Shown: piece after piece, positions 43,161 through 59,927 of the stretch
How positions within the stretch are numbered: the first letter of the stretch is position 1
How the letters are laid out: each line of letters starts with the position of its first letter
Source of the DNA: Eledone cirrhosa
Lineage: Eukaryota
Direction: 5' to 3'
Length of the DNA stretch: 64,000 nucleotides
Assembly (NCBI GenBank): GCA_964016885.1
Contig: OZ024743.1
Span: forward strand, 69,254,001-69,318,000
The notes under the pieces: model-generated
The model's input: the letters and a program-made list of their open reading frames with translations, nothing else
Databases searched by the model: none
What the model was told of the DNA's origin: nothing
Made by a program: the position numbers and the translations under genes

Positions 43161-43276
43161 AATAAACGTAATGAAGGAGTACCCACTCGTCCTTGTTTTA
43201 TTATACTATATATCTATATGTATGGTGCCAGTTTGTAATTTGAACTCGGGAATTTTATATTCTCCGAGAGAGAAAA

Positions 43277-43356
43277 GCCTTCTGACGATGATCTCTTTCA
43301 CAATGGAAATCCGCTTGGATTATCTATTTGTTTGGGATCTGAAACCGCGGTAGGGC
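43277..43356 (+). ncRNA. Type I hammerhead (family D, copy at 43222-43520)
   Basis: GCCUU CUGACGA uGAUCUC..AAUGGA-AAUCC gcuu GGAUU-aUCUAUU..GGGAUCu GAAAC cgcg GUA^GGGC. Homologous to 59542-59628(-). Confidence 0.75.
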
Positions 43357-46300
43357 ATATATAGTAAGTACAGTGAATTGTTTGGAATTTATTTTTTATA
43401 TTTTTTAAGATATTTTCTGTGTTTACACTCCCTTGATTTTATATGTTCTGGCTTGTTAATTTATTAACTTGCCATTGAACCACACTGGCATACGGTCGGA
43501 CTATAATTGTGTCTCTATGTGTATTAATTACATGTAGGAACACATACTTTTATTATATATATATATATATATATATTTGCGTATGTGTGTGTGTGTGTGT
43601 GCGCGCGCGTGGGTATGTGTGTGTGTTTTCTGATTCAATCCCATTGACCATTGTTTAACACGTTTGCTCTCCGAACCAACGCAACGTATGTACCTTGTAT
43701 GGCACCGTTATAGTGACTGGCCTTAATAATGATATATATATATAAATGCGCAGGCACACGTGTGTATTTGTGTGTGTGTGTGCGTGTGTGTATGTGTGTG
43801 TGGATGTGTGTTTGTGTGTGAGTGTGTGTTTATATATATGTGTATGTGTGTGTCTGCGTGAGTGCACCTGTGTATACGATTCTTAACTAAGAGGTTCGAA
43901 AAATCATGTCATGGGGTCGGTATCATCGACTTGATCTCTCTAAGGTGGTACCCCAGCATGCTGGCAATCTAATAACTAACATCAATGTGATGTAGTGGTT
44001 CAAAAATTGGTGTCGGGTTCGTAAAATGTGGTGGATTTTAGCACATAGTATGAAGTTTGTGATGAAGTTGACGATGATGTTGGTTGATGTGTAGTACAGA
44101 GGTGAGATGGATGACCGGGTAGGAAGGTAATATGGAGGATTGATGGAAAGAGGTGTCTGATAAGAAAATAAAATGAAAATATTGACTAAATAAACGAAAC
44201 TCTGAAGTATTTAGAAGGTTGTAATTTCATTAAAACGTGTGTTAATGGATTTTCTCTCGCAGCTTCAGGTCGTCAGGTGAAGTTAAAATATTCGTTGCTG
44301 TTTAAAGTGGCAGAATCACTCCGCCTAACAACGCAGCAAGCATCCACTAATCATGGCTAGCTTAACCACCAGTACCATTAGCACTAACACTACCAACAAA
44401 ACAAACTCTATAGCTATTACGGCTGTAGCTATCATCACCGTCGCCACCACAATTTCTGATTACCGCCATCATCACAGCGACATCATTGTCCCCACCCACA
44501 TTAAAAGCAATATGACCTGGGAAACTACTAGTACCAACACCACCACAAACACTGCCACTACCACCACTACCACCAACTGTACCATAACCATCACAATCCC
44601 AGTACACTACACGACACTACGGCACACTACGGCACACTATGACACACTACCATTACAACCACCACCACCATTAACAAAAATGGCGGCCACCATATTCACT
44701 CCAAGGAATATCTACAACTACCCCCGCCTCTCCATCATTACTGTAACCACCATTAGCAGTAGCAGCAGCACCAGCAACAGTATCACCTCACACACCACCA
44801 CCACTAACATTACCAACAACACTAACATTACCAACAACACATACTAATAACCACGCAATTTTCATCACCAACATCCTTTTCTCTATAACTATATATATTA
44901 CCATGAGTTAATAAGTGGACCTATATGTGGTCTTATAAACTGTTAGAAATAGCAGACTAAACTGTCTCAAATCAGACGCAGTAATCCTTCAAAATGACAC
45001 ATTGGATGGTCTTGTCACGGCTGGGATAACTTTCATCAAATGTTTGCTCAAACAGGTTTGATCTGGAGTTGATAAACATCCTTACAGTTGAAACCACCAC
45101 CAAAACCACAAACAGAACCATTCCCACCTCTACAACATCTCGCCCAAACCATCATTACTTTTGCAACAACTAATACTACAAACACCACAACTATAACTAA
45201 TATCATCACTACCATTACCATCATCCATGGTGACACTACAAATAACACCAGGACCACTTGCAGCAACGCCAGTCACGAAACCGCAGGAACACCACTAACA
45301 TCACTTTCCCCATCACAACCAGCTCTGTCATAACCACCATCGTCATTGCCTCCATCAACATCCCTCTCACAACTATCTCACCATAACATCACCATTAACA
45401 ATACCACTACTATGAACAATACCGACATCACCACCACGACCACTACTATCACCACCACCATCTCCATCAACACCAACCGACATCACCATATTCACCCCTG
45501 CCATCACCGCCACCATCTCCATCAAAACCAACAGTACCATGAGCACCACCAAGAACAATAATCAACTCCGCCACTACTATGAACACTACCCCCAGCAAAA
45601 CCAATATCACCACCATCCCTACCATCAACATCACAACTGCTATCCCCACTTCTAGCAGAACAAGAAACACGACAATAAGATCTCCGCTGCCACTAAACTT
45701 AATATAATCGCTCAACACTTCCAACTTACTATAAGAAGACGAAGCGGGAGCTAACATGTCATCGATCGACCTGCTTCAAATGCCAGCCAAATCCCCGTCA
45801 GATCACACCTGACTGTCTTAAAACATGAAAGACATTTCGTAATGTGTCTGCACAAAATTTGGTATGGTTATGGTTGGGCGGTCTTTGATCAATAGTCTGC
45901 TGCCTCAGGGATGACCTGGTGCTACGCAAATAGAACATTCTTCAGGACTAACACTAACACCACCACCTGCTTAAACAAATAACACCACCACCGTTAGCAT
46001 CGACGTAACCACTACCAAGACAAACTAAAAATACCACCATCACCACCACGACCATTAGTACCGACGTAACCACTACCAAGACAAACTAAAAAGACCACCA
46101 TGACCATCACAACCACCACCACCACCACCATTAGTACCGACGTAACCACTTCCAAGACAAACTAAAAAATACCACCATCACCACCACTACCACAATCACA
46201 AATTAATAACATCACCACCGTTACCACCAATATAGCAACACCAATACCTGCACCAGAACAGAGGAATAAGAGTATCACCGTTGCAAGCACCTCCCACACT

Positions 46301-46522
46301 TCCAAGACAAACAGCCCACCATCATCATGACAAACAACATGCCCTGTCACTCCAACACCACCAGCAGCAGCATATGAAATCAATCCACTCCCTCTAGCAC
46401 AAAACAGTTAAGAATACCACCACCATTAACAATATAATAAACACGACCACAATATCTCGTCTTCAAATCTCACCAACACCACTATTTCGAACACCATTAA
46501 TAGCAAATCTAAACCATCTTCA

Positions 46523-59178: not shown

Positions 59179-59378
59179 NNNNNNNNNNNNNNNNNNNNNN
59201 NNNNNNNNNNNNNNNNNNNNNNNNNNNNNNNNNNNNNNNNNNNNNNNNNNNNNNNNNNNNNNNNNNNNNNNNNNNNNNNNNNNNNNNNNNNNNNNNNNNN
59301 NNNNNNNNNNNNNNNNNNNNNNNNNNNNNNNNNNNNNNNNNNNNNNNNNNNNNNNNNNNNNNNNNNNNNNNNNNNNNN
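59179..59378. other. Assembly gap (200 N)
   Basis: Run of exactly 200 N. Confidence 0.99.
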
Positions 59379-59541
59379 GAGGTGTTGGTATACAACCAAC
59401 ATAAACTCAAATTCTATATATATATATATATATATATATATACATATATATATATATTTATATATATATATAATCAAGGTTTAGAAAATTAGAAAAAGTT
59501 TCAAAATAAATTTTTAAAAATTCACTGTACTCACTATGGTT

Positions 59542-59628
59542 ACCTTTACCGAATCGGTTTCGAGTCTCAAAAATAAATGGACAGTCCTTGCGGCCTTCCA
59601 TTGAAAAGATAAACTCTCGTCAGAAGGT
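59542..59628 (-). ncRNA. Canonical type I hammerhead (family D, copy at 59473-59918)
   Basis: ACCUU CUGACGA GAGUUU..AAUGGA ag gCC gcaa GGa cug UCCAUU..AGACUC GAAAC CG auu CG GUA^AAGGU. All core positions and the G10.1-C11.1 pair are intact. Confidence 0.88.
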
Positions 59629-59927
59629 TCGTTTCACTTGGAGAATATAAAATTCCCGAGTTCAAATTACGAACTGGCGCTATTCAATTGTTCCCGAGAT
59701 GAGAATGAATGATGTGGAAGCAATTCTGTCCAGTGCCGTGTGTAAAGATAGAAGCAGAGGCAAGGAGGTCAGTCTACTACCACTATAAATAGCAGCAGTC
59801 AGAACGAATTTTATCTCGACCTAGAGGAGGAAATAATAATTGAAGTATATATCCCTACACGCAAAAAGCGTCTAGGGACAAATGTATTGTCCAACCATAT
59901 GCCAATGTGGTTCAATGGGAACAATCG

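Follow-up and report, generated by a model that had tools for sequence, protein, structure and literature searches.

The window analyzed here was a stretch of 64,000 nt from the genome of Eledone cirrhosa (NCBI GenBank assembly GCA_964016885.1, contig OZ024743.1, positions 69,254,001 to 69,318,000 of the forward strand; window positions are counted from its first letter), and the element under study was family D, a repeat in which a hammerhead motif is present in every unit. Family D adds a new family to a known kind of element, the metazoan non-long-terminal-repeat (non-LTR) retrozymes, and is not a new kind of system. The window holds one copy of each of its two subfamilies, referred to as copy A and copy B. 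These are separate insertions, with differing 5' truncation points and with one each of two fixed 3' ends.

Two copies of family D

Natural A and B units were compared with the window by BLAST, and copies A and B were the only family D copies recovered, with extents of 43219-43556(+) for the A unit and 59466-59918(-) for the B unit. The following features were assigned to the two copies and their 3' flanks.

43219..43555, + strand: copy A, a 5'-truncated insertion of about 0.68 unit, subfamily A (95% identity over 340 nt with the natural A unit)
59471..59918, - strand: copy B, a 5'-truncated insertion of about 0.92 unit, subfamily B (94.8% identity over 460 nt with the natural B unit)
43227..43265, + strand: upstream block GCCAGTTTGTAATTTGAACTCGGGAATTTTATATTCTCC of copy A, with two small hairpins (alignment; RNAalifold pairing of 35-43 with 49-58)
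59640..59678, - strand: counterpart of this conserved upstream block in copy B, with two hairpins (alignment, RNAalifold)
43472..43493, + strand: shared block CCATTGAACCACACTGGCATAC of copy A, downstream of the hammerhead (alignment)
59897..59918, - strand: shared block CCATTGAACCACATTGGCATAT of copy B, upstream of the hammerhead (alignment)
43556..43576, no strand: (TA)n after the 3' end of copy A (most A copies show this junction)
59415..59470, no strand: (TA)n-rich tract after the 3' end of copy B (sequence)

Homology of 43222-43520(+) with 59473-59918(-) had been claimed in a first-pass annotation made from the letters of the window, and was borne out when the two copies were aligned over the hammerhead region. 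Copy A begins just before the hammerhead and extends over the unit boundary as far as its 3' end at ACTTTTATTA (site 2, 43546-43555), and the sequence upstream of its 5' end goes on in other A copies. Copy B starts at the CCATTGAACC block and runs to its 3' end at CCTTGATTA (site 1, 59479-59471). The GCCAGTTTGTAATTTGAACTCGGGAATTTTATATTCTCC block was the part best conserved between the subfamilies. The shared block, CCATTGAACCACA(C/T)TGGCATA, was found in the positions given by the annotation: in copy A it starts at 43472 and lies downstream of the hammerhead, and in copy B it starts at 59918(-) and lies upstream. This displacement had been read as a circular permutation. The permutation is real, and the copies are different slices of a tandem or circular unit; taken alone, the permutation does not require a circle, being accounted for by truncation at variable 5' points and by a choice of two 3' ends, on a template of more than one unit. 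An assembly gap (a run of N at about 59300-59378) adjoins the (TA)n tail of copy B, and the far side of this microsatellite is unassembled.

The tandem period was 486 nt in subfamily B (repeats at C4:28721129, 28721615 and 28722101 in the array C4:28721129-28722555) and 491-496 nt in subfamily A, in agreement with the unit of roughly 480 nt expected from the two window copies. Alignment of a whole A with a whole B unit covered both from end to end, 344 of the 508 columns being identical, and the subfamilies were about 70% identical. Searches of the 3.0-Gb genome of the same species returned 2567 first-look candidates for the copy B query, 3310 for the copy A query and 818 for a 76-nt query. 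Only the best 40 candidates were scored per search, the samples being best-scoring matches and not random ones; 40/40 matched in each case, at 94-95% identity for copy B and 88-95% for copy A. The scored copies were short dispersed arrays across many contigs and chromosomes, and all were A or B copies, with no more distant subfamily among the best 40 candidates of any search. The unit has a guanine-cytosine (GC) content of 38% and is non-coding: its longest stop-free stretch (111 aa) was present in one of three tandem units only (locus L003), and no open frame was conserved. Median pairwise difference in the hammerhead segment was 3.4% among B copies, 6.4% among A copies and 22% between A and B; for this segment and for the best-scoring copies, subfamily B would therefore be the younger of the two.

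Predicted hammerhead ribozymes of the two subfamilies

Hammerheads were sought with a descriptor that demands CUGANGA, GAAA, a UH site and three helices. Five motifs were found in the window, where the mean over 60 block-shuffled windows was 0.07, and motifs of the quality of copy B numbered one in the window and none in the shuffles. The hammerheads of copies B and A were resolved into these parts.

59542..59628, - strand: canonical type I hammerhead of copy B (descriptor match with stems II/III/I of 6/5/5 bp; fold)
59628-59624 (ACCTT) with 59546-59542 (AAGGT), - strand: copy B stem I
59623-59617 (CTGACGA), 59561-59558 (GAAA) and GTA ending at 59547, - strand: copy B core
59616-59611 (GAGTTT) with 59567-59562 (AGACTC), - strand: copy B stem II, with an inner helix capped by GCAA
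59558-59548 (ACCG-ATT-CGGT), - strand: copy B stem III
43277..43356, + strand: hammerhead of copy A (sequence, alignment, folding)
43277-43281 and 43282-43288, + strand: copy A stem I 5' strand and CTGACGA
43289-43340 and 43341-43344, + strand: copy A stem II, its first pair U.U, and GAAA
43344-43351 and 43352, + strand: copy A stem III, the loop-less palindrome ACCGCGGT, and A

Stem II was unusually long in both subfamilies (about 55 nt), comprising an outer helix of 6 bp, an internal loop of 8+8 and an inner helix whose cap is GCAA in B and GCUU in A. Its strands were as the first-pass annotation had written them, namely (U)GAUCUC/GGGAUC(U) with inner AAUCC-GCUU-GGAUU in copy A and GAGUUU/AGACUC with inner CC-GCAA-GG in copy B; one correction was made, in that the first stem II pair of copy A is U.U. 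The same pair is U.U in most copies of subfamily A and G.U in some. The annotation was also right on stem III, which is ACCGCGGU in A and ACCG-AUU-CGGU in B.

In copy B, stems I/II/III came to 5/6/4 bp with AUU as the stem III loop, and the lowest-energy fold of a 96-nt segment was the hammerhead junction itself (-21.6 kcal/mol). Cleavage of copy B is predicted after GUA, at A 59547, and subfamily B in general is predicted from these folds to cut as a single hammerhead, by way of its 4-bp stem III and AUU loop. Stem III of subfamily A, as a loop-less palindrome, forms only between two motifs. In the lowest-energy fold of the A monomer the catalytic core was paired with the stem III strand and so hidden, whereas co-folding of a family-type A dimer gave a double hammerhead with a shared stem III of 8 bp (-56.9 kcal/mol, against 2 x -23.7 kcal/mol for two monomers). 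Subfamily A is accordingly modeled as working only as a double hammerhead, through the palindromic ACCGCGGU. An intact hammerhead core was present in 30/33 B copies and 23/30 A copies. Copy A is one A short at the cut site (GGTA-GGGC, where the family has GGTAAGGGC), and its hammerhead is probably inactive because of this loss. The two subfamilies form a natural sister pair of ribozymes, one predicted to be a single and the other a double hammerhead, in which the effect of a 3-nt loop can be compared.

Covariation was counted on a 26-pair hammerhead model across 63 distinct copies (33 B, 30 A). Paired cells made up 93%, compared with 45-54% when partners were slid by one column. Ten stem pairs had changed between A and B, of which eight remained paired and two were broken. 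Compensatory changes on both sides, with pairing kept, accounted for four of these pairs, of which outer stem II has two and stem I and inner stem II have one each, and four further pairs had changed through wobble. A rough binomial estimate for eight of ten changed pairs still being paired was 0.012 at p = 0.4 and 0.055 at p = 0.5; shuffle controls overstate covariation support when sequences are related. The structural selection proposed in the first-pass annotation had no more than moderate support, with the paired cells and the four compensatory pairs on one side and the two broken pairs on the other. A structural constraint on the hammerhead stems is plausible, and the covariation is suggestive only, because all changes lie on one A/B split.

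Insertion footprint

Arm lengths and ends were taken from a sample designed not to favor long copies, for which the 76 nt following the cut site served as query and which gave 33 arms in 24 distinct loci. The 3' ends fell at unit position 76 after CTTGATTA in 18 arms, at unit position 189 after CTTTATTA in 13 and elsewhere in 2, and 5' ends were scattered over the unit. Some 30 of the 33 arms pass into (TA)n, which is also present upstream of most single arms. Lengths ranged from 0.14-3.15 units, with 10/33 arms longer than one unit. An apparent length peak at one unit, seen with a long query, was rejected as a selection effect of that query. Nine of the 24 loci were head-to-head and two-armed, and in eight of these nine there was one arm at each site. 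The pooled B samples gave the same ends, 62 of 67 distinct arms stopping at the two sites and 57 having a TA-rich 3' flank. For subfamily A, 18 head-to-head pairs were found in 30 loci, and these combined site 1 with site 2 in 15 cases, site 1 with site 1 in one, and another end in two, with no pair of site 2 with site 2; the main arm had been chosen to contain site 2 in this sample, and only the partner arm is informative.

Among the 67 B arms (loci L001-L030 and L091-L120), 11 had a 5' end lying no more than 12 nt from the cut site, 6 of them at unit 479-482 (the stem III loop) and 5 at unit 4-11, where 3.3 were expected; the interval was picked after the data had been seen. This excess could be due to pausing of reverse transcriptase (RT) at the folded ribozyme or to run-off on cut RNA.

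Insertions with fixed 3' and variable 5' ends and with microsatellites at their junctions point to target-primed reverse transcription, and arms of more than one unit imply a template that is longer than one unit or circular. The return of animal retrozyme RNA to DNA, and the enzyme responsible for it, have so far only been proposed. Family D provides a clean genomic footprint of that step, made up of two fixed start sites that have a word in common, targets of (TA)n, arms that exceed one unit, and the rule of one arm per site in two-armed insertions.

Origin, relatives and neighboring motifs

On this evidence it is quite likely that copies A and B are independent, 5'-truncated insertions of a hammerhead repeat, made by target-primed reverse transcription of a unit-length, probably circular RNA into (TA)n by Penelope-like enzymes. 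Family D transcripts would cleave themselves after GUA, and the cleaved monomers would be ligated into circles. Reverse transcriptase would then start at two AUUA sites on the RNA, from both (TA)n DNA ends of one break, and run round the RNA circle. A Penelope-like element would supply the enzyme, to which only the footprint and co-occurrence point. We regard as possible, though rather doubtful, an extension of this scheme in which both ends of a (TA)n break prime on the same unit-length circle, at one CUUKAUUA site each, and in which the double hammerhead of Penelope type (A) became a self-sufficient single one (in the younger B) when a loop of 3 nt was inserted; priming by both DNA ends on a monomeric circle, which carries each site once, would explain the rule of one arm per site.

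Candidate enzymes are abundant. More than 10,597 GIY-YIG candidates were counted in the genome, of which 150/150 scored passed the Pfam cut-off, and open frames in which RT is followed by a GIY-YIG domain at the C terminus reached 938 aa. At locus L033 a D array lies in the same (TA)n tract as a Penelope-like copy that is truncated at its 5' end. When seven Penelope-like frames were compared by tblastn with 90 D loci, fragments were found in L033, L034, L036, L047 and L108 only, and at L033, the one locus read through, the fragment was a separate insertion behind the (TA)n tract. A core-like stretch, CTGAAGA...GAAA...GAAAGTAC, was seen in the 3' untranslated region of RT-GIY-YIG frames at L084 (about 4537-4500(-)) and L085. 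It has U.U at the base of a short helix and a palindromic GTAC, which recalls the U.U and the palindromic stem III of subfamily A, and the 3' end of L084 runs into a TA-rich tract.

Several results weigh against reverse transcription of a circular hammerhead RNA by Penelope-like enzymes, or against parts of that scheme. Rfam gave no hammerhead: the scan of the window at gathering score was empty, the E-value scan gave 338 low-complexity, microRNA-like matches below gathering with no hammerhead among the 150 listed, and no hammerhead was returned at E up to 10 on 43220-43400 (181 nt) or 59500-59700 (201 nt). The miss may be due to the stem II of about 55 nt. In the covariation model, the two broken pairs are a G-C at the base of stem II that has become U.U in most A copies, and a U-A that is G.A in B, and every changed pair falls on the single A/B split, which amounts to one evolutionary event. 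Penelope-like loci were compared with D in a sample of 30 from the candidates above; by BLAST with the A and B units and by descriptor, no family D similarity was found in 20 GIY-YIG loci with 1.5-kb flanks, nor in 10 loci of 9.9 kb with long frames of RT and endonuclease (RT-EN). The circle itself left no direct mark among the features tested, because there was no length peak at exactly one unit among the 33 arms obtained with the 76-nt query, and no clusters of A-to-G changes, as scars of RNA editing, in any of 75 B pieces (maximum of 4 changes; the pooled substitution spectrum of these pieces was ordinary). Units within an array differed by 2.68% (113/4211), against an inter-array median of 3.7%, figures that are compatible with one template per array and are not proof of it. 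A multimeric linear transcript would also explain arms of more than one unit, but the rule of one arm per site less well.

A literature search found no paper devoted to hammerheads or retrozymes of cephalopods, octopus or squid. As the first-pass annotation had suggested, the family is retrozyme-like: it is dispersed and non-coding, has a GC content of 38% and a type I hammerhead per unit, and carries footprints of reverse transcription. Metazoan non-LTR retrozymes are described as low-GC tandem repeats with type I hammerheads and RNA circles of 170-400 nt (Cervera and de la Pena 2020, PMC7229834), and family D resembles them in its short, low-GC tandem units with one type I hammerhead each, its lack of an open reading frame (ORF) and its many dispersed copies. 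They are also described there as being without LTR, primer-binding site (PBS), polypurine tract (PPT) or ORF; family D was assigned to them on its tandem units, its hammerheads, its GC content and its lack of a conserved open frame. LINEs (long interspersed nuclear elements) or Penelope-like elements are named as their possible mobilizers (PMC7229834), a Penelope link has likewise been proposed in a preprint (10.64898/2026.07.22.740005), and family D, like the retrozymes of PMC7229834, coexists with Penelope-like elements. In the axolotl, two sister retrozyme families have been described (PMC7229834). In the first, helix III is palindromic and so weak that dimers are needed; in the second, helix III is firmer and goes with a U.U mismatch at the helix II base. 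Both traits are echoed by subfamilies A and B.

The differences are as follows. The family D unit (486-496 nt) exceeds the 170-400 nt RNAs of PMC7229834, and retrozyme consensus lengths of 51-972 bp are given by Li, Clavereau and Pollet (2026, preprint 10.64898/2026.07.22.740005). RNA circles were demonstrated in PMC7229834; those of family D are predicted. The words 'microsatellite' and 'target site' are absent from the text of PMC7229834. Unlike the retrozymes of that paper, family D has a stem II of about 55 nt and is scored by no Rfam model. That its hammerhead was missed by every Rfam model suggests that genome surveys count too few of the hammerheads whose stem II is long.

Further tandem repeats bearing type I hammerheads, about 330 nt long, are known from newts and salamanders (satellite 2) and from Schistosoma (Sm-alpha) and are mentioned in PMC7229834; they cleave as double hammerheads where helix III is too short. 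Family D differs from them in sequence and in unit length, and in that one genome holds subfamilies predicted to be single- and double-hammerhead, separated by the 3-nt AUU loop. According to Craig et al. (2021, PMC8557442), Penelope-like elements insert as partial tandems, frequently beside an inverted copy truncated at its 5' end, and have (TA)n as a preferred target in Naiad and Hydra. Family D shares with them the partial tandems, the inverted 5'-truncated copy abutting the 5' end and insertion into (TA)n, and shares with the hammerheads of their pseudo-LTRs the location near the 3' end and, in subfamily A, the palindromic stem III. Unlike these elements, it has no ORF, and it showed no similarity to the 30 sampled Penelope-like loci. 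Xenopus retrozymes have been tied to Penelope-like terminal repeats, with matches of 24/57 families to 22 transposable elements, 21 of which carried a Penelope-like annotation (preprint 10.64898/2026.07.22.740005); for family D, no such element match was obtained among the 30 sampled loci.

Three other origins were weighed against the Penelope-like one. Family D might be a SINE-like element (short interspersed nuclear element) moved by a LINE with a (TA)n tail, with the hammerhead as a passenger or processing signal and the inverted arms produced by L1-style twin priming. Copies driven by LINEs also show variable 5' truncation, microsatellite tails and inversions resembling twin priming, all of which were seen in family D, and no D-related Penelope-like partner was present among the 30 sampled loci. 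LINEs are, besides, one of the two classes of mobilizer considered in PMC7229834. We nevertheless find a LINE origin unlikely, given that arms longer than one unit (10/33), a hammerhead per unit and a (TA)n target follow the published pattern of Penelope-like elements and retrozymes, and that family D has no poly(A) and no tRNA, 7SL or 5S head (by the empty Rfam gathering scan of the window).

That D units are the terminal pseudo-LTRs of an autonomous Penelope-like element, and the copies its 5'-truncated remnants, would fit the finding that Penelope-like insertions are mostly 5'-truncated and leave behind a hammerhead-bearing terminal repeat (preprint 10.64898/2026.07.22.740005; PMC8557442). 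It is very unlikely for family D, however, as arrays of up to 3.15 units hold nothing but D sequence, RT/EN-like matches occur in only 5/90 D loci, with the L033 fragment behind its (TA)n tract, and D similarity was found in 0/30 Penelope-like loci. If family D were an ordinary satellite (or minisatellite) that had been spread and amplified as DNA, through unequal crossing-over or segmental duplication, and its hammerhead were fortuitous, this would account for the tandem organization and for the lack of an Rfam match. Such a repeat would not be expected to give short arrays dispersed over many chromosomes, fixed 3' and variable 5' ends, (TA)n junctions and head-to-head arms; moreover, the core and all three stems are kept in subfamilies 22% apart in the hammerhead segment, and the descriptor has almost no chance matches, so that this origin seems extremely improbable.

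The 16 kb separating copies A and B is unrelated DNA, with a 30-nt minisatellite and (TA)n tracts. The minisatellite (46524-50845) spans 4.3 kb with 144 copies of its 30-nt unit (ACCACTACCAACACCACCATTATCACCACT), and is open in several frames on both strands without a Pfam match. Of 67 long open stretches in the window 12 were tested, and none of these contained a Pfam domain.

Two identical minimal hammerhead motifs lie 310 nt apart at 63788-63758(-) and 63478-63448(-), each with CTGATGA, a 5-bp stem II and a palindromic ACGCGT stem III. An inverted pair of one hammerhead-like motif, at 35009-35063(+) and 34868-34814(-), flanks a long perfect hairpin (about 34887-34990), which scored 60.7 bits on MIR529, below the gathering score of 75. 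The pair (34814-35063) looks like another two-armed, head-to-head insertion, and the motif of 35009-35063 recurs at L086:233-287.

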